Assembly: GCA_905178155.1 (NCBI GenBank)
Contig: CAJINV010000005.1
Coordinates: 1,862,054-1,926,053, forward strand
Reading direction: 5' to 3'
Source: Amoebophrya sp. A120
Taxonomy: Eukaryota; Protista; Dinoflagellata
DNA length: 64,000 nucleotides
The notes under the pieces: generated by a model
Told to the model about the DNA's origin: nothing
The model's input: only the letters and a program-made list of their open reading frames with translations
Databases searched by the model: none
Shown here: in pieces, positions 7,249 to 29,700 of the stretch
How positions within the stretch are numbered: the first letter of the stretch is position 1
Layout of the letters: each line of letters opens with the position of its first letter
Made by a program: the position numbers and the translations under genes

Positions 7249-10200
7249 TCAGTCCCCAAAATACGCGGCCGACGGGCTCTGCGGTGGCAAGTGGTTGTGT
7301 GCCGGCGTATTCAACCCGCTTTGAACGAGATTTATCTGCTGGTGACTCCACGACCCGTACTTCTGACCATTACCTCCAGCCGTCTCTTTACTGTTCGAGC
7401 CCCTACTGTTGTTGTTCCCCCCTCGTCCGTTGTTTCGGCTGTTGCCCCCGCCACCACTCCTCGGGTGGTTATTGCTGTTGTGCTGACCGGCTTGGTGACC
7501 ACCGCCGCTGTGATTCAGCTGATTAGTTGTCGACCAGGACACCAGATCAGCGAAGGCAGAGCTGGAATTCGAATTATGTTGACCAGAACCTCCGGCTCCA
7601 CCCATAGTGTTCACCGGCGTCAGCCCGGCGGCAGAACTTGTAGTTCCTCCAGCGGCCGCAGGACGAGGACCAACGTAGTTGTAGTTGTGCTGATTGCTGT
7701 TGTTCACCCGAATGCCGACGCCTCCACCGGGGGAGCCGTGTGGGTTACTATTATTTCTCACAAACTGGTGCTGTTGTAATGCCATCGGACGGAGGTTGGT
7801 TGTACTATTATCAAAGGAGCAAGTGAATCACTTTCAAAAGAATCATAGGGCCGAAAAAAAAAAGAATTCGGAGCGCCCCCAACTGCCGTAGCGCCTGCAG
7901 CTTTTTCCCCCGCGCCAGACACAGCTGGTCGGTAGATTGCAGTGGGCGAATGCTTGAGAAGGCTGCGACCGAAAGCCCCAGGCGTCGCATTTTGGTAAGG
8001 AGAAGACTGCGAGACGTAGTGCGCAGAAGATGCCATAGAAGATACCCCAAGACCAGCCCCAAAGCATCATACCGTGGTGCATAATGCTACCCCGCATGGT
8101 GCTACTGGCGCACTATACTTACTCTTGCCCTACTCTACTGTTACCAAGTGGCGGAAGTGGAACAGTGGAGGTGTAATCACTTGAGATGCTCAGCCTGTTT
8201 CAGACAAAAAAAAAGCCAAACCCACTTGATATCTGCTTGGGTGATTTGACGCGAAAAAGACGTGTTTCGGGCATCAATTTGATGCCAAAAGTCGCGACTT
8301 TTTGCAGGGGTGATTCAAGCAGATACTAAGCGGGAGGAGTCAAATGAATCATAGGGCTAATTGATAGCTACAAAACGCAAGGTGATTACACCTCTTTTTT
8401 TGCTTCGAAAAAGATGGATTTTTGGCAAAAATTGAACTTTTTTCAGAAAATGCGACACCCTCGGGACGCTACGCCCGACGGTATGGAGGTGTAATCACTT
8501 CAGTTTTGTGGCGTCGCTTTTCCTATCTTTAGCAATGGGCTTTTGCTTGGTATTTTGGGTTGCGAATGCTTCCCCCGAGTTGTTTGCAAGCTATTCAGGC
8601 ACGATGGCCCCCGCGTCCACTCATGGCCATTGCGTTCGGCCCCCGTAGCCACCAACCAAATAGTGCAAACCTTATCGAGAAAGGCGCGACTTTCCTGAGA
8701 AGCGTCGCTGTGTCTCAGGTTACTTGGTTGTATATGTTGGGCGCTACCTTATGCGTGCGAGCCTGGCCATGCACTGCGGTACTTGGAAGCATTTTTTTTC
8801 CCGTATGGTGATTCATTTGTAATGTGATTCATTTGCCCCTGTGATAACTATTTGCCATCGGACGAAGGTTGGTTGTACTATTTTGCGGAGGTACTATCTG
8901 CGAGGCTACGAGGCTGTCGAAGTAGTTGTACTGACCACCTCCACCATTGTTGACCATGCCCTGCTGGTGCGGACCTGCTGCTCCGGGTCCGGGTCCGGCG
9001 GGCCCCGTATACATAAACGGATTCAGATTGTTCGCGTTCAGCAAAATCTGCTGCTGTTGCTGGTGCTGGAAACTCTGATCGAAGGCGGCGTACATGGCGA
9101 CAGTGGGAAGATTTGCGTGGTTCGAATCCACGCTGCTCTTACTCCTGTTGTTGTTTGTACGGGACATCGAAATGTTTATTTGCTGGCTCATGTGCATGTT
9201 GTTGTGCTTGCCTCCTTGTCCTTGTGCTTGACCACCTCCCTTGTTATTCATGTGGTTCATCGGCAAGGACGAGTTGTTGTTCATCATCTTCCCGTTGCTT
9301 TTCTTGTTCCCCTTGTTCGGCCCGTTGTTTGCTCCAGCACCCTTCTGTTGTTGATCTGGACCTCCAGAATGGTGAAGATCATGGTGGTTTTTACTGCCCT
9401 TCCCATGTGAGGAGGACGAACTCGATTTTCCCGTGCCCACCAAAACACCATGTTGGTTTATCTTGTTTCCCTGGGACTGAAAAACTGCGGGATTAATAGT
9501 GCTGTTGTTGGCCGCACCAGCACTTCTGTTGGCAGGTTGGAACTCGTTCCGGTTTACATTGTTCTTGTTGTCATCAACAACTCCAACAGAATTATTGTTC
9601 TGTCCCGCGGCTCCAGAAAGCGGCCCCTCGCCGTCGTCACGGATGAGTTTGCAGAGCTTCGGGAGCACGTTCCGCTCATTCACGGCCGGGTTGGGGATAC
9701 TCAGAAACGGAAACACGTCTTGCTCCTCCAGGGAGCTTCGGAAGTCGAGATACCTGATAGAAGTTGTCACGACTTCAAGATCAAGTTTACGTTAACGTTT
9801 AGTCAATCTTTCTCTATCAAAACAATCAAAATCAGTGTCATAATTGATGCCCTTGTAGTCGCCTCCAAACTTCTGCTTCTGAGGACACATGATGATGCAT
9901 GAATGCAGTATGCACCATAATTACAGGTGCGCTTACACTTATTTACGATTATTTTTTTCATCTGTACCAATACCAAAAGATCTCGCTCGTGGGTCGTCCC
10001 GTCGGGTTCAGATCGGCATCGAGCTCCTCCTCGGCGACGATTTTGCAGAGAAAATTAACCTTCGATTCCACGTACCCCTTCAGGTACTTTTTCCGCACCA
10101 GCATGGAATTCCAGTTTTTCACGTCCCCGGTGGAGGCTTCGATGACCGGAAGGCTATGCAAGAAAAAAACTGTGAAAGTGTAAGTTTCTTGGAGGAATAG

Positions 10201-13200
10201 CAGCACAAGTTTGCTCTGCATGACACAGAAAACCTGTATTTGTGTAGCTAGTACTTGAAAACACGTACGAAAATAGCCACTGATGCATGTCCAGCATGAC
10301 AAGCGTATACAGTTTTGCACTTTCTGCAACACAAAGTTACACTTACACAGTTTTTTTCTTGCATAAAGGTTCTCCTGCATGCAGTGCATGAAGTACTCCT
10401 CTTCGGCAATGGTCTGTTGGTGTAGTTTGAATTTTATCATATCATTTCATGGCAATTAGGCTATTCAGGCATCAAGAAAGCAGGCATCAAGAAAGCAGTA
10501 GCGATTCTTTTAGAACGAGGTGTAATGTGCGACTACACAAGTTTTCTGCAAGAATTGTTGTATTTCTACATGAAACAAATGGCTGCAGAATAAAATCATT
10601 ATCATACCAGATCCCTTGGCACGTCTGGGCCGGTGGAAAAAAATTCCGATGGCTGCAAGGGCTCGCTAGCTGCTGGGTAGGCCAATTCGCGACACAGCTG
10701 CAGATACGTCCGATACCAGGATTCGTAGACCCGCGAGAGTTTGTGCTTCAACAGGCTATTTGACCGTCTGCTGCTGCTATTGGACGGCGCGGGAGACGGG
10801 GCAACAGCACCACCAGCAATGCCTCCGCCGCCCGGAGTAGATAATTGCTGCGGTTGTGCTACCAACATTGGAGGTGCCACTATCGGGTTGTTCGCACCAC
10901 CACCGGTCGCCTTCGCGGCGCCCGCTTGTTCGGGGCTCGACGTGGCTGAGAAGGCAGGAAGAGAGCTCTGCTCAATAATCCTCCTGCAGGTGGGACAGAA
11001 AGTCGGTAGCATGGACCGCGTCAACTGCTTCCACTTTCTGCGGCACAGCGGGTTCCCGCAAACGCGAAACACGTGCTCGAACTCGCCGGACCGCGAGGAG
11101 CGGAAGATCAACGCCTCCTCGGCGCGAAGGGACACCTGCAGGTCCTTGTACCTGGCGAGTTTATTGTGTTGCGGCACTACTAGTTCACCTTTGCTCTCAG
11201 CTGCACTCCTGGTCGAGGATGAATTGGCGGAGACAATCTCCCGAAGCAGCTGCAGCGTCATCTGCACTGGTTCCTCTTTTTCTTTACTTCCGGTGCCGGT
11301 CCTTGATGAAGCTCCTGCGACGGAGACATTTGTGGTTTCAGTGGCACCAGTTTCTTGTCCGTCCACTCTACCACTACCGCCATCGTCGGTGGTCAACAGC
11401 ATGTTCATCGGATTTGCCGCGTGGTCCGCTATCCCCGAGCCGGGCACGGCGGGCAGCACCGGGTCGGAATGCCCGATCGGCAATATCGAACAAAAAAGTG
11501 TTAATGTTACGGTTTTGCATTTTTTGCATTAAAAATTTTTTGTGGGTTCACTGCCCGTATTATGTGAATGCGTAAAGAGACCCGCTCACTCTTTTAACTA
11601 TTGCGGGACTCTGAAGTAGCTAACTTTGTTTGAGTTAGCTAGTGCACAAGGTCTGACGGCGCGGAACTTCGCCTACCGGGGCCGCCCCATGACGCACCTT
11701 CCGCGCCACGTGGGCTCCTGGACCCGGTCGCAGCGCCTCCACACCAGCTCGGTGTCGGCGGAGCCTGCTTTTCAGCTGTTTGGGGGCGCTTCGTGGGCGG
11801 CAGCTACTGCAAGCCACCTGGTTGAGAGATGATCTCGAGTTGCCACCATCCTCGCCGCCGCCATCGACCCTGAGGATGGACCTGCTTTTGGCAGGCAGAG
11901 TCGACCATACCGTGCTGTCTAAAAAGTGTTAACGGTTTTTTCGGGTCATAGGGAATTCCGCCGAAAAAATCCATGATTTGCCATCAATGTGAGGCCAGAT
12001 TTCGCAGTCACCCAGAAAAACCGTTAACACTTTTTAGACAGCATGCTATGATCGACTTACCCTGTCCAAAACCCTGCAGGCCAAGAAGTACGGGCTCTGG
12101 GGAGGATAAATCGACCATAGCGCGCTGTCTAAAAAGTGTTAACGGTCATTTTTTGGCATTTTCATACAAAAAAGCATGCTTTTGGCAGGCTGGGGCGATC
12201 ATACTGCCCATTCTAAAAAGTGTTAACGGTTTTTTTGGGTGACTGCAAAATTTGGGCACTTTGTTGCCCGAATTTTCCCAATTTCCCTCATCCTCGAAGT
12301 CACAGCTTTTCTGCTTCATGGAGAGAACTTGGCGAGATGGCTCAAAAGCTGCAGCGCGATGACTAGAAACGCAGCGAGCCTATACAGTTCTATGGTGGCG
12401 ATATGGTGGAGGGTTGCGCGGACCTTTCGGGGGGTTGTCGCATAGACTGATATGCCGACACATGACGCACGCCTTTTATGACAGACTTCATGGCGAAAGG
12501 TCGCCAACATCACTGCCATATCATGCCAAAACAGTCAGAGCCGCGGCGCCCGTGCTCTTCCTCCGGAGGTTGCGCTAGACTCGGGCGCGGAATGGAATAC
12601 TTTGTGTACTAGCTAGCTCAAACTGATGACGCTACGACAGAGTTCCGCGGTAGCTAGTATCATGAAAAGTGCTGACTTTTACATGAAAAAAAAGCCACTG
12701 AGCGGAAAAAAATTTTTTGTTCCAAAAATCGCCGAAGCCGTAACGTTAACACTTTTTTGCTCGATATTTTTTAGCACGGCAGGCAGCACCGGGTCGGAAT
12801 GCCCGATCGGCAGCCGGAGTATCAAAAGGAAAAATCCCCCCTCCCCATATCGAAACGAAATTTCTGATGCTTGATTTGCGTACACAAATCAGGCCCGTCT
12901 TGCTGGGGAGGACTGCAGGCATATACCAAGCCTGGGTCGAGGGGTTTTGACGTAGGGGACTAGCATGACAGACGTCGGCCCTGTAAGCCCAACAGCATCA
13001 CAAACCGCCGGCATAATGCGGCGGACTCTCTGGCTTTGCCTTCTTGCAAGACAGACAGGATTTGTGACCTCAAATCTGCATCACAAATTTTCAGACGAAT
13101 GAGTTTTCAATATGGGGAGGGGGGATTTTTCCTCTCAATACGGAGTTCTTCATCCTCATTCAGCGTATGCATTAAGTCCAGAGGGTTTTTATTCCCTGCC

Positions 13201-14985
13201 ATCGTGCTCGCGGAGCGGCTGTTCAAATACCCGGCGGGCGCAGACATTACACCCGCAGGACTTGGTAACGACAAGGAGCTCGACGTCATCGTGTTTGGCG
13301 CGTTGGTGCCGTTATTTGTTCCGCCGCCATAGTGGGACGGGGTTGTGCCATTCGGGGAAGACACGTTTGTCCCCGCGCTGTTGTGCCTCTCCGCGTAGAT
13401 CAGCTCGCCGTGCTGGTTCCGCAACAGAGAACTGGTCGGTGTGTTAGACCGCGAATCTCCACCATGGTAAAAATTCGTCGGCGTGCCCTGGACCGACTTC
13501 GCCAGACGGCTCGGGACATCAATCGGGAAGCTGTTGGTCCGCTGCGCCGACGCCATCATGGCCGAGGGGCTGGATTCCGATTTTCCCTGGTGTATGGATT
13601 GCAAAAATGTCTGGGTCTGGAAACTTGTGATGCTAAAAGTGAATGGTAGACGGACTGCAATACGCAGCTATGCATGACAAATTTTTTGGCTCCCATGTCT
13701 TACGTATTCCGCATGGCAAACTGCGTTCTTGCATGACAGGTAAGAGGGCGTTTTCGTGCCTATGCAACACAGATTCTCAAGTCATGCCAGACAAGCATGA
13801 CAAACTTGCATACTTCCAGACCCAGACATTTTTACATTTGATATGGTGGATCAGCTGACCACTCGTCGTTCTCGATCTACCGGCGGACGTAGCGGATTGG
13901 TATGGAGTTCTCAAATGTTACATTCTCAACTGTTACATGAATTTGTAATGCAAGAACGGCAAAAGTGAAAGGGGGAAGATTGCTCCTTTTGCATTACAAA
14001 TTCCGCACAGATTTACATGCTTTTTAGCCCTCCGGGGATTTGTCATGCGTAGCCGCTTGATTATCTGCATCTGGCGGCTTCTGCTTCAGGTAGTTTTGCA
14101 TGACAAATCCATGTAACAGTTGAGAATGTAACGTTTGAGAATGCCATAATTGGTTCGGCGTTCTTCTGCCGGAATTATGGGTCGTCGCGGCCGCGGCGGA
14201 GGTGGTCGTGTGTCTAGCGAGCATAGAAGTACTTGAAGCCGCGGCCGAGGGGGTGCCTTGGATCAGCTGGATGTTGGCGGCGGTCAGGTTTATCGGGGTG
14301 GGTTGGGGGTTATTACTACCAAACTGCTGCTGTTCTTGTAGCCGCCTGCGATTTTCGTCAAGGTTTGACGCGGTCTTCTGCCCGATCACGTGGACCCGAT
14401 CCGCCTCCTCCACGTCGATCGTCAAACGCTGGGCCGCGGCGGCCATGTTCGGCGTTGTTTTCCCCGATCCGCCGCCCGTCAGGGGCGTTTTGTTCGCGCC
14501 GGTGGAAGTCGACTTCGGCGTGGAAACGCGGCTGTTCGTTGACAGCTCGGGAGGATTTTTCGTCGCGTTGGCAGCACCGCTAATGTTCAACGCGTTTACC
14601 AGGTCGGTTTTCACTGTTGGTCCGCCGCCGACCTGATTTTCGTTTTGGATGGTGGATCATGGGAGAAACGAAAGAGAAAAAGAGAGGGACAATCACGAAA
14701 TGAAGCGTATAACTGGTAGTGAATTCGGCACTTTTTTGACCCGAGACACGGTGATGCTTTGTGTCCTCCACCAGACACAACGAGAACGACCACGCAGGTG
14801 CGTACCATGGAAAAGCTACGTAGTGCATCAAGTGTTGTATCATAACCAGGATAGACTAGCTGCACACAACAAGCAAATTTTGTCCTTACGTCAAACTCCT
14901 CCACAAGGCCCTTCAGTGCCTCGAGCAACTCGTCCCGCTCGGCGGAGTTGCTCGAGTTCCGGAGGCGGTCCCGGATGATGTCCAT
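7249..14985 (-). CDS. Large multi-exon hypothetical protein with N/G/Q/S-rich low-complexity regions and a CxxxxC...CxxC Zn-finger-like motif
   Basis: ORF pieces 14611-14985, 14024-14614 (GT-AG intron 14633-14889 gives EEFD|VGGG), 13107-13604, 10602-11483, 9958-10440, 8829-9770 and 7249-7785. Introner junctions checked are in frame; motif VCGNPLC...FCPTC. Two joins (about 9780-9960 and 10440-10600) are unresolved. Confidence 0.65.
7809..8846. mobile_element. Long (1.04 kb) non-autonomous TIR element/intron, family E
   Basis: TIR TATCAAAGGAGCAAGTGAATCAC / GTGATTCATTTGCCCCTGTGATA; DR ACTAT; internal repeats TGGAGGTGTAATCACTT. Confidence 0.82.
10155..10365. mobile_element. Introner family D
   Basis: TATGCAAGAAAAAAACTGTG / CACAGTTTTTTTCTTGCATA; DR AAGGC/AAGGT; QENL|PVIE in frame. 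Confidence 0.9.
11484..12766. mobile_element. Long (1.28 kb) TIR element related to family D
   Basis: TIR TATCGAACAAAAAAGTGTTAATGTTACGG / CCGTAACGTTAACACTTTTTTGCTCGATA; internal AAAAAGTGTTAACGG repeats; no 5-bp DR, but a 39-bp exon duplication. Confidence 0.82.
12820..13140. mobile_element. Introner family G
   Basis: TIR with GGAAAAATCCCCCCTCCCCATA; DR CGGAG. Confidence 0.9.
13593..13843. mobile_element. Introner family A
   Basis: Family A TIRs; DR TGGTG. Confidence 0.92.
13901..14148. mobile_element. Introner family F
   Basis: TIR TATGGAGTTCTCAAATGTTACATTCTCAACTGTTACATG and its inverse; DR ATTGG. Confidence 0.9.
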
Positions 14986-16226
14986 ACTGGAAACTCGGCT
15001 GCGTTGCCCAAGTTGCCCCGGCTCGGTAAAGACTCAAGAATAGCGGTACAACAAGAACTAGTTGCAGGATTGTAGTACTGCTCCTGCACCAGGACAGAGC
15101 GCTCTGTCAGCCGCCGTGCTTCGAAGCCTTTCTGCAGTGGTCGTCCCCTGTCGCGGCGCCGGGGATTGATCACATGATCATGCGGGTAGCCCTTACTGCG
15201 GTGAGGTAGCAACTGCAGCTTTCTCTGCCATTTTTCGAACGTGAATTGAATTAATAGCAGGAGGGGGGTATAGAGAAAGAGAATTATCCGAAGTAGTAAA
15301 TGTTTGTTTAAGAACGTCGTGTAGTACTGTGAGGAAAAACGAATAAACGTCAACTCATCATGTTTCAAACTCAAAGAGAAGGTAGAAGAACAAACGAACG
15401 AAAGCGTGAGGGCGGTTTATTTTCAGATTACGTGCGAAGCTGCGCAGCCTGACAGATAGAATTCGAAGAACAAAACTGAAGATGGCCTTGTTGTATGTAG
15501 TTGTACCCGCAAAAGTAGCGACGCCTTCTACTAGCAGGATTTTTGCAATTTGATGAAAAGAATTTTGACATGACAGAGGTAGCAAAAAAAGACCGTGCTT
15601 GGCAACAGATTCGCTTTGGCGCGGCAGTGTGCAACAGAAGCGGCAAAAAGCAACTCCAACCGTATCTCTTCATCTCTCTCGCTCTCGAAAAAGGCAGGCG
15701 CATGCTGCGTTTTTCTAAACCGATCATGTGCATCTGCTGCACAACTCTCAGGTTCAGTCCGACACCTGCAGTTTAATCTATCATGTTGAGAAAAAAGACT
15801 TCTCGGACATAATGAAAAAACCGACTTACGTGTCACCAAGCTACTCGAAAGAAATTTTCTGATCGGTACAGCCAGTAAAAACCAGCACTTCTTCAGCACA
15901 CCACTTTTCATAAGGTGAAAACCAGCTCTCCTTTCTGAGCTCTGTGTCAGTGCTTCATCCTGCTTTTCTACACAATCATAGTCTATTGCCGATCAGTGGT
16001 TCCATACTTTCTGTATTGCTGATCCAACAACTAAGCTTGTCGCGGTCCACCAGCAGACTGCCGCACTTTTTCTATATCTGTTTGGACCTGGTACACCAGT
16101 TACAAAGGAATTTATTCGAATAAATTGATACGCTTTTATTCGAGTTCTTCTCAACGCAACAGACCAGGAATAGCTTTCGACAGCTGCAAATGGCGCCGGT
16201 CGTCCTACAATCGTCTCGTCTTGCGC

Positions 16227-19197
16227 TTACAGCACTTCAAGCCGCCACTTCTTGTGATCCGCATCGGCTTCATCGATTTCCCCGGGAAGTGAAGTGTAGG
16301 CGGGCCGGCGTCGTTTTGTATCGGTCACGTGTGCAAAAGAAAGAAACTTCTGGAATAAAGCAAATGCATCGACAAAAGGACTAAAAAGTACGACCTGTGA
16401 CAGCTGCATGTGCGTTTTTCTTCTGTCATACTGCAACTGAAGCAAAGCAGCTCCTCGCAAAAACGAAATCATGCCAAAGATCATGTTGTATTGTACTGAA
16501 GTAGAGATCTTCTGGAAGTTATACTTATACAGAATCATCTGCATTTTTCCAGGTTATGGCCGCGAGAGGATCGCGTGTAGTTTACCGTAGATACATCAAC
16601 CAAAGCCTCCAAGCCAAAGGCTTCCTCGCGCGTGGGGCTTTCCCCGCTCGTCTGGGCCGGTATGACCAATCGCATTGCACCCCCTGCATCCATCCCCACC
16701 GGCAACTGCCAGTTGCAAAAAATCCCTGCATCCTTGTGCTTTTCTACGTCTGGCGTCGCAACGGCAGCAATAACGCGCCGCTTTTCATTCGGTGTTTTTT
16801 CGCGCAGGCCGCACATGACCAACCGATTCAGTTTGTTTTCCGGGTCGTAGGTGACGAGTTGATACAGGTCCTGCCATATGCATTGCAAAACCATTATAGT
16901 TGTACTAGTTGCTATTTTTCCATCAGAAATTTTCTCGGAAAGACAACTGGAATTTGTCAATCTAATTCTGATTAAGGTTAAGCTTGCTTGATGCCATTCA
17001 ATAGAAGGTACTGCAACTGACAGTACGAGTACGATGAATTTTGCAATGGATAGGCCATTCCTCCTCTCCCACCGGCACCACCGTCCACTTTGCCAAGGCA
17101 CAAGGCGTCGCGTCAGTATCGTGCGCATACGTCATCACTTCGCGCCCGCGATTGTCTCCGTCCATGCTTTATCAGGAGAAAATCGCTAGAGAGAATTTTT
17201 ATCAAGTCATACGCACTTGTTTCTATCTTGAGATGCAAAGAGCACGGCGCGAAAAATACGGAGAAAGCTGTCACGGGTAGCCGCCCGCAAAAGCATGTAG
17301 CGTGTTTAGTTCACGATATTTCCGATCATGCAATTCATTGCATTTTCCACATGAAAACAACAAGTGGGACGATGATATCATGCTGCTTTTTGCGTGTAGT
17401 TCTTTACACAATCATACGCTGAAATTGTTCCAGTCTGGCTTGCCACGCGCGTACAGGAACTCATCAGCGCTGTTCCGTATCAAGACTGTGCTCCATTTAT
17501 TCCAGGAAGTGGTCCCGGCACTCGGCGACTCGCCCTCGCTCACGACGGCGGACACTATCAGTGAGAAACTTTTTACCGTCGACTTCGAATCTTTATGCGC
17601 ACTGAAATACAAATGCTTCTGAGCTGAATATTAGGAGACTCTTCATTATTCATTGACTTACCATGCCTGATTGAGTGGTTGTATTCTGAAAGGAAATCAC
17701 AGCCATAGATAGGGGCAGTTCGCGTCTGGTGATGGAGGTAAACAGGTTCGCACAGAGTAGCATTCGAAACCACGTTAAATTGCATCTCCAGCTCGAAGTG
17801 GTCTGACGGGAAATGGCCCGGAGCAGTATCCTTTGCAAAAGTTTGGGATCTCAGCATCTGTAAGCACACAACGAGGACACGCACGACAGACGTATTGCAG
17901 TTTGACACTCCTGGCAGTGACATTCTCATTTCTTCGTATGTCAACAAGCATGTCAAAACTTATGTCGTGTCGTGGTTGCCGCGTGCTTTTGCTTTATCAT
18001 TTGCCTCTACTTTTACATTCCCTAGCCGCGCTTGTTCCGCAACTCTTCTGTGCCCACTCGGTGCCGTGTGTCAGGTAGCGGCCGCAGGTTTGGACCTGAG
18101 GTGAAAGTTACAAAGGTAGCAAAGTTGAGAACAAAAATGCTCTGTACAGTGACACTTTGCGCAGGTAGTTTTGGTGCAAATCCAAGTGTATTTAATGAAA
18201 CCACAATTGTTCGAAAAAAAACTATAGATACGACAGATCTGCTCTTGAGTCTTCAAGCTGTACCTTTGTGCAAGATGAAATCAATTCGGCGAAACGCCGC
18301 TTCGTTGTGTTGCGTCGTTCCGTTCGGAAGAGCGGCCGGATAGGTGTCTCGTCCCGCAGGACCGTCGAAGTTCGCGAACGCGTCGCGAAAGCCCCAGTGC
18401 TGTGCGCGCCGGTACCATTCTTCCGTTGGCGGCCCGTTCATATCTCCGGTCAGAACGAGGTTGAAGTGCTCCGGATTAATGCTTGTTCCCGACGTGGTGG
18501 CTTTTTTATTCGCGGCGTCCAGAAGTCCTGCCATCGCCAGCTCCAATTCTGCACCCCGGTTCGTTTCTCCACCATCGGCCACACTCTTAGAGTCCATATG
18601 AACATTCCCACACACAAACAAAACCCCGTCTTCCGTGCGGAACATTTGCACGAGCATGGGCCGATAATTGCAATCCTTGTAATTCGGTGTCGGTTTTTCA
18701 CAAGCCTCGCCGCGTGTGCGTTGCCGGTACACTCCCTCCCCAGCCCACGCGATTTGCCCCCACGGCCGTGGGGAGCTGGAGGCTTCACCACTCTCGTCCC
18801 ACTCGGGCAAAATCGCCAGGGACTGCACATCGTTGTCCCATCGTATCGCCGCGCCGGTCGTACTCTGCACGCGCATCAGGGAATTCTGCGGCCGGCGCGC
18901 CTGCCCCAGAATCTCCGCCAGGTGCCAGAAATACATCTGCTGGGTGTCCGGGCCGCTGCCCGTCGTGTCGCCGCTGTCCTCTCGGGCTTCGACCACCTTG
19001 GCCTTGCTCTCCTGCAAGTGCAACACCTGCAGGTCTAGCCCGTTCTGCTCTGCTTCCGGGTCCGCGAGCGAGCTGCGAAACAGCGCAGACGGCATGCCGG
19101 CCCGGCGGAGGCCCCAATCGTCATTGCTTCCACCGACGTTGTATGATACTACGCGAAAACGAGTGGGGTTGGAATCTTCATCCTCGTCCGGGGGCAG
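16227..19197 (-). CDS. Endonuclease/exonuclease/phosphatase (EEP) family protein with C-terminal extension; 5' end uncertain
   Basis: EEP motifs in order: FRVVSYNV (about 19140-19160), DLQVLHLQE, NVHMDS, LTGDMN, GFRDAF, RIDFIL, and PSDH (about 17800). Downstream exons at 17412-17612, 16535-16876 and 16227-16360 are tentative. Confidence 0.8.
16877..17052. mobile_element. Introner family B (diverged)
   Basis: TATGCATTGCAAAA / TTTTGCAATGGATA; DR TGCCA/GGCCA; EEEW|QDL in frame. Confidence 0.78.
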
Positions 19198-20024
19198 TTA
19201 TCCTACCAGAAAAGGCACCAGACGCACACCCATCACGCAAGTACTAGTACCGTGGTCATGATGCGTCATTTTTCCCCAAGGAGACAGATTCGTTGGAGCG
19301 AGAAAGGTAGGAGCTGTACTTTCGAATTCGACGGATACGGAACAACCGCGGTACACGAGTGTACTACAGGGAACAAATTTACTTCTCCAGAAAGAATTGA
19401 ACCTGCTCTACCGTCATGACGGTAAAACTTACTACGGGTCCTCGTGCGCTTTTCTTCTGCTTCGTACCGGGTGAGGTCCCGGCCGACTCTCGCGGAAATC
19501 CACACCGAAAACCATTGTCGCGGGGAACGAGAGTTGTTCTGCTCGTGACCAGAGATCGTCAAACTCTGTTTTATTTCCGGCACCGTCGTGGTTCACCGGA
19601 ACTAACCCTACTGGAACTTCCACCGCCTCCACCAAAAACTGTTGCCAATCAAATTTCAAACCAGTTGTTAGTCCGGAAGTAGACCTGCTGTACGCGTTGT
19701 TCCGGCCAATCTCGATCTCGGCTTCGCCGAGACCCGGGAGCAACCAACCGGAACCTTGCGGGGAAAAACACGGCTTCGCAGTCGTGGTGGAGTCGTGCTG
19801 CTTCTATGCAATACAAATTTATTACCGTACTCTACAACAACACAGCTTCACGTCTCTACTACTACAAAATCAAAATGCACCAAAAATTTTCCCACCACGG
19901 AGTTGACCCGACCTTTACCGCATGTGCTAACTTGTCCTGTTGAAGAAGGTTCTTGGGCGGGAATGCTGCAGAATTTGTCATGCATGGAGAGCCTGTGTAC
20001 GTCTGCGTCCGAGTCCGTCGTCGC

Positions 20025-23000
20025 CTACGGAAACAAATTTACTACAGAAGATAGCTGCGTCCCTCGTGGGTAATGTCGACAGCTCTTGATCGGAAAGGCG
20101 TCCTCGTCGCCGTCCACAGGTTCATCCAAGGTAAATATGTCTGTGTCTGGAAGATAGCGAGATTAGCAATGATAGTCTGGCATATCGACTCTTAACTCTC
20201 ACTCTGTAGTATTGCGTGCCCACGAACAAGAGCAAAAAGAAAAAAGCAGCTTCTCATGGGGAATACACAACAAAGAGCCACGATAAAATCGGCATGCATG
20301 AAGTTGTAGCATTACATTGTGATTACCTACTCACTTACATGCATCATTCACAATTTATTTCGCAATTTATTTCGCGACCCAGACATATTTGAATCGCATA
20401 AGGCTTCACGCGAAACAAAACCGCGTTGCCGTCGCTAATGTCTTGCCTCTGCAGCCGTAAAAATTTGTCACCCGCGCCATGATCACCACGCATAGGTAAC
20501 GACTTCTCGTCTTCCGCGGTTCCGTCTTCCAACTTGATCAGGGACCCAAACTTGCTGTACTCCATGCGGTTCATGCTTTTCTCCGTGTTGCGATCGAGGC
20601 GGTCCGGCTTGGAGTAGCGGATGTTGTTGCCCGCATCCTGCTCGATCTGCAACAGCGCCGGCAGGAGCCTACTGGCGTACCACAGGTGATCGCTGTTCTG
20701 AGTTTGCTGCAAGAGGTTCTCTGCCACGTACTTGGCGCTTTGCCCCACCGCAAATGCCCGATCCGCGTCGCAGGTGTCGCAGGGAAGCATGTGACTCAGG
20801 TACTTGAACATCGTACTCGCGAACTCGGCGGTGCGGTTGTTTTTTGTGAACAGCCCGTAGGACTCGTCGGCGTCGAAATTCAGATTAAAATCTTGCCAGG
20901 GTTTGAACTCGCCTTCTCTCGCTGGTGAAGCTTGCCAGTAGCAGTAGTGAAGCCTCTTTTCCGCGATAAAGCTGCTCACGTACAAAAACCAGGGGTGAAA
21001 CTGGTCGGAATTGTCGACGCCCCCGTAGTCCTTGTCGAGTCCGAAACCAAACTCCCCGATCCAGACCGGGCTCGTCTCTGCCACGAACCCCCTGTAGTAC
21101 TCCATTTCCCGACGGTAGTCGTTGTAGGTAACGAGTGGCTTTCCATCGGCGTTGTTCCGGTCCCAGGTCAACCCGTGGTGGCCGACGTACCAGCTCGAAT
21201 GGAAGGCATACACGTGCACGGAGTAGACGGTCTGCTTCGGAAATCTGCGATGCAGCCCGTAATCAAACACATTCCGCGGAAGCACGCCGGCGTAGTCCAC
21301 ACCTTCCACAAGCAGCAGCAGGTTTGCAGCGACAACTTTTGGGTTCCCAACGGTACTTAATGCCGAGACGCTGAACTTGTTCTCCATCTGCTCCGTGATG
21401 GTCTACATTCGGACCGCACACGCCTCCGCGACGGGGGCGAAATCCGGGTCTTCACTATTCCATACCGGCTCCTCAAAGTTACCGACGTGGTCATCGCCAC
21501 CGCCCTCAGCATCGTCCGGAGGCGGCTTCTGACTCCAGTAGAGTGCGTCGATGTTCTCGTAGCCAAGGCGGTATTCGTTCCGCAGGTCGTAGCCGATCAC
21601 GAAGGCGTTGTTTTTGTACCGGTCCGCGAGAAAGGAAATTTGCATGAGGAAAGAGGACGTCGGGTAGCGGTCCGAAAACCACATTTGATTTCCGTCCTTG
21701 GAATTGCAAGTGCAACACCACCCCGCGTCAGACATGTGCTCGTTCAGAACCACCATCATTCGTTTTTCCGTGATCTTCCTCACCATCTCATCCAGCAGGC
21801 ACAGGGGCAGCGGCGCTTTTCATACATGAATTTGTCATGCAAAAACACTATCATCATTCACACGATCAAGCTGCTTCGCATGACAAATTTGCGAAGGGCT
21901 AGACACCACCTAAATCGGTCCGGAACTTGTAATGCTACAGGTGCAACCTCCCCCCTTTCACTTTTCCCATTCTTGCATGACAAGTTGAGAATGTAACATT
22001 TGAGAACGCCATATCGGCGTCTTCTCCAAAGAGGACATATTCGAGGAGATTCTCGGCCAGGAGTTCGACGACGAGTCCGCGGCTTTACCGCTAGAAGTGC
22101 TCGAAGCGAAGGAGGACGTTGCGAAAACGCTGCTGCACGGCGCGCTCAGCATGGAAACCTCGAGCAGCGACGAGGAAGGAGGAACAACTGTTGGTGCTGC
22201 TGCGACTACTGGAGCTGCTGCTGGAACAAGCGTCGAAAACAAGGAGAACAACACATCAGCAGACGATATAATTAACTCGGGATCCTCCAAGAGGAATACC
22301 AAATCTGCCAACAAACGAAAGAACGCCTCACAGATCGAGCTGCAGACAATGTCGGAAATGACCGGGCGACACCGTGATTCCACGGTCAGCAGTGCTAGCG
22401 GCAGCGGCATTGCGATGAAGAGTCAAGCGTCGCAAGGGGAACTACTGGAAGAGCGTGAGCAACTGCTGGAACTCACGAAGATGGTCCACGAGCCGGCCTC
22501 GAAGCTCCGCGGGGGCCAACACTTCTACAACGTGGACCCCATGAGCATGCGCGTCTTCAATAAGGCGCTGGCCGAGAGTCCGTTGACGCCCTTCGAGATT
22601 GCGGTCTTGTGTGCGCACCTGCGGGAGAATTACCCCGGGCCGGAATTGTTCCACGAACTGGCCGTGAGTAAGACTCGGATGGAAGGTTCAGTCGGCCGGG
22701 AAGAACTGCTTTCGGACTACGACGCAGCGGGTTCCTCTCGCGCGTCCTGGACCAGCATGCTAAAAAACCGCCTACTATCCCAAGCAAAAACGTCTCCACC
22801 CCATAGTCAAGATGGGAATCTAGCAACACAAACCTCCAAGTTTTGGGAGCTGTGCATGACAAGTTTCCCTCTGCAGTGCAGTGCTGATTGGCAAGATAGG
22901 CTGCATGAGAAAGCCATTCTCACATCCTGTTTACAGCATTACAAATTCCAAAACACGACTGGAAATTCCCCTCATGGAGCTGCGCATTACAAATGTTCCT

Positions 23001-25749
23001 GTCATTGCGCATTTGCATGACAACTCTGGTGTGGGGACGTTTTTACTCAGGATACCTGCCCTGGCGGTTTCAGACCGGGCACATGCGTATCAAAAGTAAA
23101 AATGTCTGGGTCTGGAAGAATCTAAACTCGTGATGCTGTCTCGGGATTCGAAAAAGATTTGTATTGCGTGACCAGTAAGAGGAGTTCGCGGAGATGGCAT
23201 TTGTCATGCGGAATAGGCATGAGGAAGCGCTCTAAAAATCTGTTGTGCTACGGCATGCATCACAGACATCATGCGTCATGGAAAATATGCATGACAAATC
23301 TAGAAATCTTCCAGACCCAGACATTTTTACACTTGATAATGCGGCAGGTCGGGGAGGGCTGGATCGGCGGCAAGGCGCTGCGCTGGCTGCTGGCGACGGG
23401 CGCGCAGGTCGAGGTGCGCGTGAAGAAGAACAGCCACTCTGCCTTGCCGGAACAGGAGGACTTTTTGCTGCAGGCCGGCAAACCCTGCGACGACATGATC
23501 ATCGTGCTCACCGGGGTCGTGCGCATCGCGCACCACCACGTGTTTTCGCACGGCTCGGCGTTGCCTTTGTCGCAGTTCCAGCAGGACCTGGGCTCGAACG
23601 CGGTGCTGAACATCGAGGCGCTGGTCCCGCAGGGGGACAACGGCGCGGAGAAGAAACAGAGGATCACTCCGGCGTATTCCGCGTGGATTTCTTCGCACGA
23701 AGTCTGCCTCGTGAAGATCTCCCGGGCGAACTACGAGGAGGCGAAGGCGCTTGAGAAGGCCAAGTGCCTGCCCGACCTGGACACCGCGCACTCCCATAGC
23801 CTCGCGGTCACGGAAAAGGCCCGGAAGTTGCGGACCATGATGATGCTCGCACGGAAGCAGGTCGAGATGGAGCACGCGCGGGTGAAAGCGGTAGAACAAC
23901 ATCACCAGGGGGATCCGCATCAAGGTGGTGCAGCTGTGCTAGTTGGAAGCAGTGCAATCAACGTGAATAGAAGCCCTAGCACTTCTGGACGGGGCTCCAC
24001 CTTTGTGCATCTGTCCCCAGTCGTGCAGTTTGGAGGTGCACCAGCTGTTCCACCTGGCGCAGGTCCGTCGGTCACCTCCATCCAATCGGGTTCGGGGGGT
24101 AATGTGATTTTTGGAACGAATAAACCGCGAAAAAGCATGTTTCACAACGAGGACCAGCCAGCGTTTATTCAGTACCCCAAAAAGATATCAAATGTAAAAA
24201 TGTCTGGGTCTGGAAACTTGTGATGCTGGGTGGCGTCTCATTATGAGGCTACAAATGCTGGCTCAGCATGACAAATTTCTGAGCTTGTAGGTGTTGCCTC
24301 ACCATCTCATCCAGCAGGCACAGGGGCAGCGGCGCTTTTCCGAAAATTTCCTCGTATTTGGCGATGGACTTCAATCGATTTTCGCTCGCGGGCAACTCGT
24401 TCCAGCCGATCAGCTTTTGTTTGTTCTCCGTCGACATGCTATTCACGTAGTCAAACATCCAAAGCTCGTATTTGTTGTTCGTTTCCGCGTCCGCCTGTGC
24501 GAGTTCTGCGGTACCCGGCGGCTTGCACTTCTCGAACAGCGCGTCATTTCCGCCGATGGTTGTCGGTAAAGCATCCCGCAAATCTTGTTCCGACCGGCAG
24601 ATTTTCAGGTTTTCTGCGGAGTGGAAGATCTGGTCCCGCGAGTACCCCAGCCGCACGTGGTTCAAGCCCCAGGCGCGAAACTGGTCGAGGACATGGTCCA
24701 TGGAGTAGTACCGGAGAAACGCTTCCGTCCCCAATTTCCCGTGCGTATTCCAATTACTCCCCTTGAGGTAAATGATCTTGTCGTTGGCGTCTTTAATCAG
24801 CGGCCCGTCGACGTGAAGTGGGGGGCAGTGCTTCGCGGGATCGCAGTCTACTGGCGTCGTCAAACCACCGGGCGAGGTGGAACTTGAGGTCGTCGATGTG
24901 GTTGCCGGACTACTCGTTGTCACCGGCTTCGCAGTTGTGTTTGGCTGCGGCGGAAGTGGATGTGGCTGCTCCGTACTACTATACGGCTGCGGCGGCGGCG
25001 TCGTACTCGTACCTGGTTCGGGAGGAGGAGGCACAGCACCAGAATCATCATCTTGATCCCCATCATCTCCGCCTACTAACATACAAAAAATGAAAAGGAA
25101 AAGCACACAACCTACACCACCATTTCGCCATACCCTTAGCGACACACACGAGTCATACACACAGCAGCACCTGTTTATTCTAATTTACCACCTGGTCCTT
25201 GTATGTGTAAGTACTAGTGCCTTTCTGTGGGATATCTGCCGGTACGGGAACCTCCTTCTCCTCCTCGTCATAGCAGCATGGTTCTTCCCCTTGCCGTTCT
25301 TTCTGTCTCGATTCATTTTCCTTTTCCGCGACGGCAAGAAAGGCCTGGGAGGGTGATGAGGGATGAACCTCTCCCCCTCCGGATGGTCGAGGATCGAGCA
25401 TGATATCATGTGTACTAGCAGCACTAGGCGGGCTGGTCTCTTTAATGCCCTCTTCGTCGCCTGCTTCAGCAGCACCGGCTGGTCCTCGTGCGTCGTGATC
25501 ATCATTTTCAGTATCGATACTTCCGCTGTTTTCTTCACTTTTTTTTCTTCTCTTCGTGCGCTTATTCTCACCACGTAGTCGCCGATCGCCGTCGCCAGCG
25601 GCGGGTAAATCGCCGTTGACCACAGCAGTTACAGCCTTTGAAAGTTGAAGTAGTTCTTGCAGGCAAAGTGCCAAGTAGCAGCACGGAAGAGAAATCTTCA
25701 AGCAAGAACTAGATCTTGCAGCGGGCAATTTTCTTCTGCAGAAAATCAT
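20025..25749 (-). CDS. Secreted glycoside hydrolase family 5 (cellulase-like); has an in-frame TAG and a 2.5-kb insertion, so possibly a pseudogene
   Basis: GH5 motifs LKGSNW, GLNHVRLGY, VVLNEH...WCC, VIGYDLRNE, VYSVHVY, PVWIGEFG, YCYW. Signal-like N-terminus at 25180-25749, then a Pro/Thr linker. TAG at 21403-21405. Confidence 0.85.
20123..20400. mobile_element. Introner family A (degenerate)
   Basis: AAATATGTCTGTGTCTGGAAG / GACCCAGACATATTTGAATCGCATA; DR AGGTT/AGGCT. Confidence 0.72.
21822..22013. mobile_element. Family F introner lacking its left TIR (left edge of the 2.5-kb insertion)
   Basis: Right end GTTGAGAATGTAACATTTGAGAACGCCATA matches 14119-14148; the outer ~30 nt of the left end is missing. 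Confidence 0.8.
22014..24185 (+). CDS. Fragment of a CNNM/DUF21-type metal transporter gene (end of CBS pair plus cyclic-nucleotide-binding homology domain), nested antisense in the GH5 gene
   Basis: Begins GVFSKEDIFEEILGQEFDDES (cf. CNNM GIVTLEDVIEEIIxxEIxDE). Later LLQAGKPCDDMIIVLTGVVRI...PAYSAW...LVKISRANY. Three exons join in frame (NRL|PWRFQTGHM|RQVG). The DUF21 N-terminus is absent. Confidence 0.78.
22776..23054. mobile_element. Introner family H
   Basis: TATCCCAAGCAAAAACGTCTCCACC / GTGGGGACGTTTTTACTCAGGATA; DR CCTAC/CCTGC. Confidence 0.88.
23088..23338. mobile_element. Introner family A
   Basis: Family A TIRs; DR ATGCG. Confidence 0.92.
24186..24299. mobile_element. Left half of a family A introner (right edge of the 2.5-kb insertion)
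   Basis: Collinear with 57433-57544, then switches to GH5 exon sequence at a CCT microhomology. Confidence 0.82.
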
Positions 25750-26763
25750 ATTTTCTGCAGTCCCAAGTCGAGCAGCAGGCGCAGGACGAATGCGAGTCGG
25801 TGTCGTGGGCTTCGTTTTTACATCGTAGCGGACAACGAGCTGCTACACATTTTTAGTAAAGCATGACACATTTTGCACTTGCAATTTAGAGTTATTCTTA
25901 TCTCCTCGTTTTATGTGTGCTCAACGCATACACGTCTTACTTTGTTCACTCAAGATGATCCTAGTCTTGCCTCGCGAGTTTGAATCTCGATGAAAATTCC
26001 ACGAAGTAGACAGGAATCATAAGACCAAACACTCGATATTCGATGCTTTATTTTTCCATTTGCCTTTTACCCATACCCCGCTCCGAGAAGTACTAAACAT
26101 CAGCGATTAGCGATAGGCCCACGCCCAGCCAGATTGATAAGTACCCCCAAGCCAGACCCCTCGAAGTGAACGTGAACCCTTTCTTCCTTGGGGAGGTGTA
26201 TTAACCGCGCAGCATTTCAAGAGGATCGGGCCAAAGAGGCAGTGACCCTGCAACAATCGATTGCGTCTGCACGACTGTTGCTTTGCTTTTTTTTTTCTGA
26301 TAATTGATCTTCTGAAACGTTTGCGCTGCCGGTTTTTCTCGAGCAAGCTCTTTGATTTTAGTTTCTGGTAGTACAACCGTTCGCCCGATCGCGGCAAGAA
26401 ATCTCCGCAAGAACCGGCATGTTCACAAAATATACTTTTTTTATGAAACTTTTCCGGTATGGAAAGTTCTGGTCTCAAAGTTCGAAAATCAGAAACAGAA
26501 GGTCAACAAAGAGCTGCGCTGCTTGTTGTGGTTGCAGCAACTATTAATCTGCAATGCACAGCACTAGCAGCTCTAAGAACTTTTGAATCTATTGTCAATA
26601 ATTTTTTTCCTCTTACGTCGTTATTTCTTTGCGTCAAGTTCAAGCTTTTGATCATCAAAAAACAAGTTCAACTGACTTTATTCAGTGGAAACAAAAACAA
26701 ACGGAAACGCTTTATCATGTTCATGTATACATGATATAAAGCTCTGTCAACCAAGGCAGTCTT

Positions 26764-29700
26764 CTACTCCTCATCCTCATCGCCCCCGGTGTTATCTTCC
26801 GCGTCCGCCTCGTCCGCTGCTGGGCCGGGGTCCTCTTCTTGCATTTCCACGTCGTTGTCGTCCGCCGCGGGCTCGTCCTTGGTTTCTGGACCTGCTGCTC
26901 CCGCTGCGTTCTCATTTCCGAGGTCCGGCACGTCGTTATCCAAGCTCAGCCCCACCGACTCCAAAACGGCCTTTTTTTGGGGGCCACATATTTGGGCACT
27001 TTTTTTGGATTGCATTTTGGCGCTTCGTTGCGGGCGCCAAAAGAAAGGGCATGGCTCGGCGCTTCAGGCCCCTTTGGGGCGCCACTTTCATCTTTTCAGC
27101 CTGCCAAGTAAGGCGCCGCGGCATCATGCATGAGGGAGAGCGCTCACACGCATAGGCGGCTGCGACGCGGGCGAACCTAAGGAGACAAGACGGCTACTGC
27201 GCTGCCCCTGAATGACAACCCAGCCGCGCGGCCGACCTGCTGATGCGTCGGCCACGAGACTTATGGGGCCCCTTCCATTTTCTTGAAAATGTCGAAAGTG
27301 GAAAAAGATACACAGCCTCGCGGACATCCGCAGGCATGAGGGTGCGCGCCAGAGTAGGCCCACGACGGCCCCGCTTGAAAAAGTAGCCCACTCGGGAGAC
27401 AGAGCAATAGCAGGCGAGTCTTGTTGCACTTTGGGCCGACAGTGCGGCTACTCCTGACAAAAAGGCCGACCGACTGACGGCGCCGTGGTTGGCGCGCTCC
27501 CAAAAGGCGCCGCGGCTAGCTTACAAAAGCGCTCACAACGTCCTTCCCACTCCGGGCTCGAAAACCGGCCTCGGGGTGGGGGGGGTGAATGAAAAAAAGA
27601 CGCGTGGGCAGCCCCTTTTAGTGAATATGCGTGGGGGTGTGGCAAATATGTGGGGCCCTACCACCCCAAATATTCGGAATCAGGGCGGCATACTGAATAT
27701 TTGGGGAGGGGGAGGCCCGCATATTCACTAAAAGGAGAGCACCGGCGGCGCCAGCAGCCGATGAGCGACACGAAGCCAGCCTGTGGACGGACCTCACGAA
27801 GCCCGGCTGCTTTCCAAAGCGCCAGTGCCGCAGGCATGCTACGCACGGCGAGCTGCGTGGCGGATCAAAAACCACTAGCAGGGCGGGGACTGTAGACGCA
27901 CGGGCAACACAGGTGGCCTAGCGGCTGCCCTCCTTTTTGCCCCCGGCCAAGCCGACACACGCACGGAGCCCTTCTGGTTTTCGTGCGGGCGTCCCAAGCC
28001 GTAGCCGCCACGCCGGAATTGCCCCAAGGGCTAGAGCCGCCCGAAGGGCACTCGGCTGCGGTTGAAGGTCACCTCGGGGAAGTTGCCGAAAGTTCCGCAG
28101 CGCCACGTTGGGCGCTCAATGCCTTGCGCGTGCATGGAGAGCAAACACAAATCGAAAAGGTCGACACCGCAGGAGGCCGCTGCCGGCGCCAATATTCGTA
28201 GCGAGTCTGCTTAACAAACTCACTTACTTACTACATTAGTGGCGCCCGGCATCGCCCGAAACATCCAGCGCCAGAAGTGCTGTGGGTGCATTTCCCATTC
28301 AGACACATGCCCTCACCAACGAAAAGCGGCAACATGTTGTGCGCGTTTTTACCTTGCGCAAATTCGCGAAACCTAAAATCCCCCCGAATATGTGGGCACT
28401 AAATAAAAGCCGTTCTCACTGCCACGGTGCTAGTTTGTCCCCCCATAGTCGTTATCCAAGCCCAGCCCCACCGACTCCAGAACCGTGACTCGCTGCCGCA
28501 GCGCCTGCGTATCCGCCAGTACCCCCTGCAAGAACCGATTTGTCATCCCATCGGCCAGCAAGTCCTGCTCCCGTTTCAAGAATTGCACGGCTTCCTGCTT
28601 CGCCACCATTTTCTCGAGGCTTTGCTTCGTGTCGAGGGACAAACTCTCCACAACTGCCGCGACGTTTGCCGGGATCTTGTTGACCTTGGTGAAGAGTTTT
28701 TCGGCTTTGTCGGTGGGGATAATGCTCGCTTTGACTTCCTCGAAGGTCTGCTCGGTGGCTTGGCGATCGTTGTCCTGTGCCTGCTTCAGCTCCTCCTCGT
28801 AATCCTTCATTTTGTCGATCTCCTTTTCCACCTCGAGCAAATCGTCGTCGATCTTCTGCTTTACTTGCTCAAATTCGACCAGCCAGTCCTTGAACGCGCC
28901 TTGGGTTTGGTACACGTCGGACAGGGAGGCGATCTGGGATTTTTATTTTTTCAACTTTATTCGCGTTTTTTCTTTTTTCCCGTACATAGTCGCAAGTAGT
29001 TACCTCCGTCGTGGGACCCGGTTTTATTTTCCATAAAACTCCACCCTAACTCAGAAGCGATGCCGTGCTGATACTAGTGTCATCAAACTACTACTTAACC
29101 TGCATGTTAAAAATCACAAAGGATAATTTTGAAAGAGCAAAACATTTCGTACCGCCGCCTCCAGGCTTGCGGTTCGCTCCACCTGCTCTGCAAGCATCTT
29201 CTCGTCGAAGTTCTTGCTCAGATTGTCATCCGTGGTCTTGATTCTCCGGCTCAAATCCGAATTGACGCGGAGGGTTTCGTATGCACTGCAAAAATGTCTG
29301 GGTCTGGAAGGTTGGAACTTGTAATGCTGGCTCTACATGTACATTCCTGGGAAATCTGTATTGCATAAACAACAGGAGTCGCAGCCTCTTTTGTCATGCA
29401 AAAACGCAGTTTGTCACGCGGATTGCCTATGAGAAAGCGTTTTGGGAAGTTGTCATACTGGGCTGCATTCGCGAGTGTTTTCATCATGGACATTTTAGCA
29501 ACACAAGTTTCCAGAGCCAGACATTTTTGCAGTTGATATTTCGTTCTGTAGTTTCTGGTTCTCCAGACCCTGCTCTTCGCGGAAATCGTCAAGCTCGCGG
29601 GTGAGAGAACCTGTTTTTCTTTTTTCTCATGCGGTGCCCCCTCGCAAAAATACGAGAAATATTTTCTCACGCAGGATGATCATGTGCTCCTTGTTAAGGA

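Follow-up and report, generated by a model that had tools for sequence, protein, structure and literature searches.

How can kilobase-long pieces of DNA sit inside genes, each of them bracketed by a long direct duplication of the exon that it interrupts, and what becomes of them when the gene is expressed? This question is raised by a stretch of 64,000 nucleotides of the marine parasite Amoebophrya sp. A120 (contig CAJINV010000005.1, positions 1,862,054 to 1,926,053; hereafter the window), where four inserts (inserts 1 to 4) lie between duplications of 30–44 bp. An earlier note on this DNA had proposed that they may be an undescribed class of long introns removed by direct-repeat-guided joining, in a manner reminiscent of ciliate pointers, or the product of an insertion/repair pathway that lets long cargo sit in genes, or an assembly artefact. 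Our analysis revealed that the four repeat pairs are real, and that the inserts are heterogeneous and not a single class of repeat-guided intron. We suggest, with a probability of about 0.7, that the host-exon duplications are DNA repair scars of insertion and that the inserts are handled by ordinary introner splicing, not by the long repeats.

The introners of strain A120, according to the accessible parts of the report describing them (PMC7789003), possess inverted repeats starting with TAT and lying 1–5 nt away from the splice sites, short direct repeats and non-canonical borders, and no transposase; that survey covered introns of 40–1000 bp and direct repeats of 3–8 nt. The same parts state that U1 small nuclear RNA (snRNA) was not found in Amoebophrya, that the exact intron border is masked by the 5-bp repeat and marked as unknown, and that the published gene models of the strain were built from transcript alignments (PMC7789003). 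The window contains some 30 short elements that run from TAT to ATA and have target duplications of 5 bp, in agreement with the introners described there. A literature search, mostly without subscription papers, returned no description of 30–44 bp duplications at Amoebophrya introners.

Two database proteins labelled Amoebophrya sp. A120, P0002 and P0004, are identical to exons of the window. Two contig runs from one sample, X3 and X4, were regarded as RNA, since introns present in the DNA contig run X1 are missing from their contigs. The word length of such contigs is 31, and the bar for a match reaching over a junction is likewise 31 letters; contig depth is not to be read as copy number. 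From two RNA runs available as raw reads, X9 and X10, no more than 90 and 3 partial matches were obtained, on introner ends, which are uninformative for the four loci. The relation between insert length and repeat length was examined in 145 related loci (662 kb after merging, labelled L below) from one related assembly, whose fragmentation would under-count long multi-copy elements. A scan of positions 7000–29000 against Rfam and a search of three element-end patterns against viral contigs both gave 0 matches.

The four repeat pairs do exist, with the sizes and mismatch counts given in the earlier note: 30, 39, 44 and 36 bp at inserts 1, 2, 3 and 4, with 1, 1, 0 and 2 mismatches and periods of 1073, 1330, 2519 and 1516, respectively. 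When the window was simulated 30 times with an order-4 Markov model, 0 runs produced a direct repeat of at least 28 bp within 8 kb. As stated in the earlier note, three mismatches out of four are synonymous, which the codons read from the sequence confirm; at inserts 1 and 2 this would be because both copies code there, and the intronic copy of insert 4 has a non-synonymous one. The observation that short introners carry 5-bp repeats also held: among 504 short elements (window plus related loci), 385 have 5 bp as their longest exact flanking repeat, 5 have 3–4 bp, 4 have 7–8 bp, and 110 have no exact repeat of at least 3 bp, mostly showing one-mismatch repeats.

What had been overlooked is that inserts 1, 2 and 4 bear terminal inverted repeats of the introner type, and that insert 1 has a 5-bp target duplication of its own. 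The inverted repeat opening with TAT is found at both ends of inserts 1 and 2 (17/20 and 19/20 bases, respectively) and at one end of insert 4; insert 3 as a whole has none. A 3–5 nt border repeat is complete at insert 1 (5/5), absent at insert 2 (0/5) and contained within the long copy at insert 4. Removal from mRNA is documented by RNA contigs for inserts 1 and 4 and by P0004 for insert 2, and is not seen for insert 3. The open reading frames (ORFs), on which no family search was made, reach at most 102 aa inside inserts 1 and 2 and at most 159 aa overlapping insert 4. The features at insert 1 are the following:

7252..14985, minus strand: host gene 1, 1227 aa, without a match to any Pfam family, mapped exon by exon with P0004 (100% identical over the query); it carries inserts 1 and 2.
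7780..7809, minus strand: downstream copy of the 30-bp exonic duplication, of which 7780–7803 remains in mRNA.
7809..8846, no strand assigned: insert 1 element, 1038 bp, TAT...ATA inverted repeats, perfect 5-bp target duplication (7804–7808 and 8847–8851).
8853..8882, minus strand: the 30-bp copy on the upstream side, which the mRNA retains.

The period minus the element and 5 nt equals 30, and removal of these leaves a head-to-tail duplication of 30 bp. In the RNA contig X3 record 9, positions 9749–8847 are followed by 7803–7011 at consecutive record positions with 0 differences; this join of 8847 to 7803 implies that both 30-bp copies are present in the mRNA, and in P0004 the 10 duplicated residues occur twice. 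Insert 1 is therefore excised as the element plus 5 nt, with both copies kept. DNA contigs enter the element by 28–29 nt from both flanks, just below the bar of 31. Contig depth, which does not measure copy number, is about 420–680 for the insert 1 family and 210–510 for that of insert 2, versus 40–55 on the flanks. Insertion of a hybrid element was rejected for insert 1, the left copy being without the old target repeat.

Insert 2, in the same gene, consists of these parts:

11444..11482, minus strand: downstream copy of the 39-bp duplication (repeat pair and P0004).
11484..12766, no strand assigned: insert 2 element, 1283 bp, TAT...ATA, no 5-bp target duplication; the intron is 11480–12767 according to P0004.
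12767..12773, minus strand: filler of 7 nt between the element and the host copy, 6 nt of which are coding in P0004.
12774..12812, minus strand: the 39-bp copy on the upstream side, part of the coding sequence in P0004.

P0004 covers both copies with the filler-coded residues in between, one-copy versions are absent from it, and 42 extra nt are left over with the frame kept. The terminal stem of the element has a predicted pairing probability of about 1.0. When the element plus 2, 5 or 8 nt was removed in all registers from the introns of P0002 and P0004, 14 out of 14 TAT...ATA introns fitted only the element plus 5 nt, and in all of them the cut may fall 1 nt ahead of TAT and 4 nt beyond ATA. 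Insert 2, as read from P0004, is compatible with this cut only. The database protein hence supports an excision of insert 2 in the 1/4 register with both copies kept, and insert 2 likely shows the exact cut position of the non-canonical introns of Amoebophrya, that is, the border published as unknown in the accessible text of PMC7789003.

Insert 4 lies in a different gene and has lost one of its ends:

26767..34799, minus strand: host gene 3, 1230 aa, without a match to any Pfam family and by eye resembling a coiled coil, mapped with P0002; insert 4 lies before an acidic tail.
26932..26967, minus strand: downstream host copy, which stands in for about 35 nt lost from the element end, provides the ATA end and leaves with the intron.
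26964..28447, no strand assigned: insert 4 inverted-repeat element, TAT end intact at 28447, other end truncated; intron of 1516 nt.
28448..28483, minus strand: upstream host copy, wholly retained in mRNA.

The homologue P0003 likewise ends in an acidic tail. The 34 nt adjoining the upstream copy belong to a genuine end of the element: L011 1612–2134, which has only its ends in common with insert 4, carries this end type intact on either side. At the far end about 35 nt were lost and the element is joined to the host copy at a short microhomology. DNA contigs span both junctions, reaching 230 and 80 nt inside. In RNA contigs of X3 and X4, 26931 is joined to 28448 with 0 differences and the upstream copy is whole, in agreement with P0002. 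Neither this join nor that of 8847 to 7803 at insert 1 falls within an identical 31-nt stretch, and they are therefore not graph short-cuts. Since the host copy carries ATA just before the 5-nt repeat, the 1516 nt removed correspond to the usual TAT...ATA plus 5 nt. An inner stem is predicted with probabilities of 0.8–0.99 at most of positions 34–58 (0.2–0.4 at two of them), and no pairing is predicted for the outer 30 nt (0.4 or less). A comparison of the insert 4 site with metagenome contigs gave 0 matches.

Inserts 2 and 4 lead us to propose tentatively, at a little short of even odds, that the U1-less splicing of Amoebophrya places its cut by distance from the element ends (1 nt ahead of TAT, 4 nt beyond ATA) and can do without a direct repeat and without pairing of the outermost bases, and that botched kilobase-long insertions are rescued as introns, adding short in-frame peptide repeats to the proteins.

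Some further elements in the window and in the related loci concern these ends. The single 13-bp repeat mentioned in the earlier note was located at an introner at about 43858–44038. This introner reads CAT in place of TAT at its left end, and its first 8 nt are the same as the host letters on its other side, which accounts for the 13 bp; what happened at insert 4 may have happened here on a smaller scale. The introners at 20123–20400 and 57432–57682 also have a left end other than TAT (CAT or TCT), and bear on the strictness of the end motif. Target duplications of 8 bp are found on three TAT...ATA elements, L011 1612–2134, L047 10329–10608 and L072 6365–6573, at least two of them nested in other elements, and may point to a second transposase family.

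Insert 3 behaves differently from the other three:

20503..25085, minus strand: glycoside hydrolase family 5 (GH5) gene broken by insert 3 (tested stretches, not full gene ends), PF00150 on two pieces.
21403..21405, minus strand: in-frame TAG in the GH5 domain, within the stretch aligned with P0009; 0 differences in DNA and RNA contigs.
21778..21821, minus strand: one copy of the identical 44-bp duplication (repeat pair).
21822..24296, plus strand: cargo, a captured genomic fragment of 2475 bp, antisense to the host gene.
24297..24340, minus strand: the other 44-bp copy, with 3-nt microhomology with a cut introner.

The homologue P0009 is continuous over the insertion site. The cargo comes, unspliced, from the interior of a CNNM metal transporter gene; it spans residues 354–900, is 96% identical to residues 354–609 and 618–900 of the CNNM protein P0010, and contains two whole introners (22776–23054 and 23088–23338) and two cut-off ones at its ends (21823–22013 and 24186–24296). 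The RNA contig X3 record 9 covers 21792–22012 over the left junction with 30 host-side letters, one below the bar of 31, and RNA contigs of X3 and X4 end at 21807 and 24311, as two real junctions would give. RNA contig depth over the cargo is 7–26, versus 16–17 on the upstream exon, and RNA contigs match the cargo alleles of the window at 7 positions at which the DNA contig has other letters. The DNA contigs of the cargo differ from the window and have a depth of 61–71 versus 42–45, which hints at a second copy of the cargo elsewhere. Insert 3 looks retained in RNA, as far as contigs blind to a minor spliced form can tell, and the GH5 gene, with insert 3 and a premature stop, is likely dead. 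A search for a protein of at least 243 aa matching exactly the GH5 piece on the downstream side of insert 3 returned none, which is weak evidence. A reassignment of the stop codon was rejected as an explanation of the TAG, as P0002 and P0004 end at ordinary stops and are read without TAG. An ORF with an exonuclease/endonuclease/phosphatase domain (PF03372) lies downstream of the GH5 gene, at 18253–19197 on the minus strand.

The number of copies in mRNA, which the earlier note had proposed to count, is two at insert 1 and one at insert 4 on the RNA contigs, some of which carry insert 3. Its statement that removal of each insert with one copy rebuilds a continuous protein holds on paper, as an open frame; the cell does not appear to use this option at inserts 1 and 2, where RNA or protein keeps both copies.

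Does the length of an insert set the size of its repeat, a link that the earlier note had proposed to check? The scan of the related loci indicates that it does not. A long repeat was found in 1 of 475 short elements, L047 11990–12301, a 312-bp introner with a 67-bp copy, a 10-nt filler and 72 nt left over. Conversely, only 5-bp repeats flank elements of 895 bp (window 3652–4546), 972 bp (L051) and 1031 bp (L047), the last two with short-introner ends. Among 43 element calls longer than 800 bp in these loci, 0 have a long repeat, most being chance pairings of neighbouring ends, and only 2 have a perfect 5-bp duplication. A gapped scan of 624 kb gave 15 isolated repeat pairs, 7 with a period of at least 800 bp and some being plain tandem or element-internal repeats; the cargo of six inspected loci consists of gene pieces with introners, one repeat-rich element and non-coding DNA. 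The rate of long inserts is about 1 per 95 kb, versus 4 in the 64-kb window, and no other copies of the families of inserts 1, 2 and 4 were found in the related loci.

Several of these loci deserve mention in their own right. The element at window 3652–4546 consists of an introner of about 213 bp and a nested insert of 683 bp (about 3770–4453), with a target repeat of 4/5; the nested insert has internal repeats of 48–60 bp and a 7-bp overlap at its ends. L039 4906–6468 is a repeat-rich insert of 1503 bp without inverted ends, between identical 30-bp copies, in a frame otherwise open. Inserts of 850–1800 bp between duplications of 40–80 bp occur at L033 437–1912, L047 4391–5505, L060 9–939 and L063 735–2624, the last with an introner within one duplication copy. 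Lastly, L005 7700–18400 holds two diverged tandem gene copies whose introner positions differ, a within-locus record of intron gain.

Which process, then, left the duplications? Insert 2 and the L047 introner have one precise end and one with filler (7 and 10 nt, respectively), and insert 4 has one precise end and one that is short of about 35 nt; in all three the long host duplication replaces the short one. Insert 1 shows no such end and has both kinds of duplication. In one-ended retroviral integration, as described in the accessible text of PMC5041404, one end is normal, the other is truncated, and a long host duplication takes the place of the 5-bp one; staggered breaks closed by end-joining give duplications with microhomology and templated inserts (PMC5730883, accessible text). 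At inserts 2 and 4 and at L047, one element end may have been joined normally, and host end-joining would have closed the other once a copy of 30–70 nt of the target was made, with filler or microhomology as its trace. Insert 3 would be foreign DNA captured at a staggered break: it is copied from another locus, has arbitrary ends inside introners, with 3-nt microhomology at one of them, and has its target duplicated, although a small chance of mis-assembly is left. Insert 1 might combine a normal insertion with an adjacent duplication, in either order. The allele would remain functional if the number of nucleotides left over is divisible by three (30, 42, 72 nt) or if the host copy happens to restore the ATA end (insert 4); otherwise the gene would die (insert 3). 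Of the proposals in the earlier note, the insertion/repair pathway is the one that the data favour, without its tie to long cargo, since the 312-bp introner bears a 67-bp duplication.

Several observations weigh against this repair reading. No empty or ancestral allele was seen at inserts 1, 2 and 4, and the repair step is for this reason read from its end products. The full 5-bp duplication of insert 1 is not explained by one-ended insertion, and a chance landing in an existing duplication is unlikely because head-to-tail duplications make up 0.12% of 688 kb; insert 1 fits neither one-ended insertion nor later template repair neatly. At insert 2, RNA and DNA contigs both end at 11481 and the junction is not displayed in RNA contigs, a stop that is expected if both copies are present in DNA and RNA. 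Long repeats occur on 3/4 long and 0/29 short TAT-type elements of the window (Fisher p = 7e-4), and long elements may be more prone to long duplications; this excess is post hoc, as the window was chosen for the pattern, and is absent from the related loci, where long non-nested families are unsampled.

Such an excess also speaks for a rival that seems unlikely to us, in which the long families insert by a pathway of their own, routinely making target duplications of 30–45 bp. All three long non-nested TAT-type elements of the window are duplicated, versus 0/29 short ones there and 1/475 in the loci, and depth, though no measure of copy number, hints at several copies of the insert 1 and 2 families. 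The three elements end differently, however (5-bp duplication kept, filler, truncation), L011 1612–2134, with the end type of insert 4, has an 8-bp duplication only, and the same duplication is found on a short introner and on cargo without element ends. It appears quite unlikely, too, that a normal insertion was followed by a break at the element end, repaired by copying 30–70 nt from an element-free template such as an empty sister, a hairpin-skipped strand or cDNA. This would account for the joint 5-bp and 30-bp duplications of insert 1, and the strong stems of the element ends could be cut or skipped; yet it requires an extra template and leaves unexplained insert 3 and the cargo without element ends (L039, L060). 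Its end products are the same as those of one-ended repair, and at inserts 2 and 4 the data cannot separate the two.

An assembly artefact is very improbable as a general explanation. It can be ruled out at insert 4 and is unlikely at the first two inserts; some chance of it is left at insert 3, which would then most plausibly be a misplaced contig starting and ending in repeats. The copies of insert 3 are identical, both its ends lie inside introners, and in the DNA contig X1 record 1 position 24297 is followed at once by 21777, with 0 differences and a single copy, a result that also speaks against the repair reading at this locus. The 44-bp identical repeat exceeds the word length and permits a graph short-cut in this join, which may also reflect an empty allele or a mis-assembly; the RNA contig over the left junction, the contig stops at 21807 and 24311 and the window's own cargo alleles in RNA argue for a real insert, as do, at the other loci, the DNA contigs entering insert 4 well inside and insert 1 just below the bar. 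The direct-repeat pairing of a new long-intron class, like that of ciliate pointers, is hardly credible. Insert 4 does lose exactly one copy in RNA with outermost 30 nt not predicted to pair, and its cut position is free within a 14-nt stretch, making repeat-guided joining compatible with this insert taken alone; nevertheless, TAT and ATA lie there at their usual offsets, and the loss fits the ordinary rule of TAT...ATA plus 5 nt as well. The single-copy mRNA that such pairing predicts is contradicted by the RNA contig at insert 1 and by P0004 at insert 2, where two copies stay; insert 2 is spliced without a direct repeat at its borders, and insert 3, with the longest and sole perfect repeat, is not seen spliced and is carried in RNA contigs at about the depth of the upstream exon.

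The removal of the non-canonical introns of Amoebophrya is an open question according to the accessible text of PMC7789003, and inserts 2 and 4 bear on it. The repair chemistry resembles known end-joining, and the useful part looks to be a natural test of the splice register: elements without the 5-bp repeat are natural splice mutants. Insert 2 suggests that this repeat is dispensable and fixes the splice register, and insert 4 suggests that TAT and ATA brought close by an inner stem suffice. If splicing is measured from the ends, a genome-wide catalogue of repeat-less introns would yield the splice code. The duplications are also one route to short peptide repeats and to dead genes in a fast-evolving proteome.

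In ciliates, pointers are coding direct repeats that flank an interruption (an internal eliminated sequence), act on DNA and leave one copy. Unlike them, the DNA of Amoebophrya keeps inserts 1 and 4, which are contained in DNA contigs (one DNA contig skips insert 3); two copies persist in mRNA or protein at the first two inserts, with one left at insert 4. The inserts resemble the A120 introners (PMC7789003, accessible text) in the TAT inverted repeats and non-canonical borders of inserts 1 and 2, and of insert 4 at one end; unlike those surveyed, they are elements of 1.0–1.5 kb with duplications of 30–44 bp, outside the limits of the survey. Intron gain at staggered double-strand breaks in Daphnia likewise places the insert between direct repeats of the adjacent exon (PMC4202315, accessible text), of 4–12 bp there versus 30–44 bp here, often with both copies exonic. 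The tandem duplications arising from end-joining of overhang breaks are similar in the duplicated overhang, the microhomology and the occasional templated inserts; the available parts of those reports (PMC5730883, PMC8355091) show them at engineered breaks in mammalian cells. One-ended retroviral integration shares one normal end, another often truncated and host-joined, and a long duplication; in the accessible text of PMC5041404 it is drug- or mutant-induced, depends on integrase and gives duplications of up to hundreds or thousands of bp, whereas the Amoebophrya cases are natural, with 30–70 bp, and concern non-autonomous inverted-repeat elements whose mechanism is a matter of inference. 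Set beside these systems, the finding is a variation on known introners and known repair outcomes.

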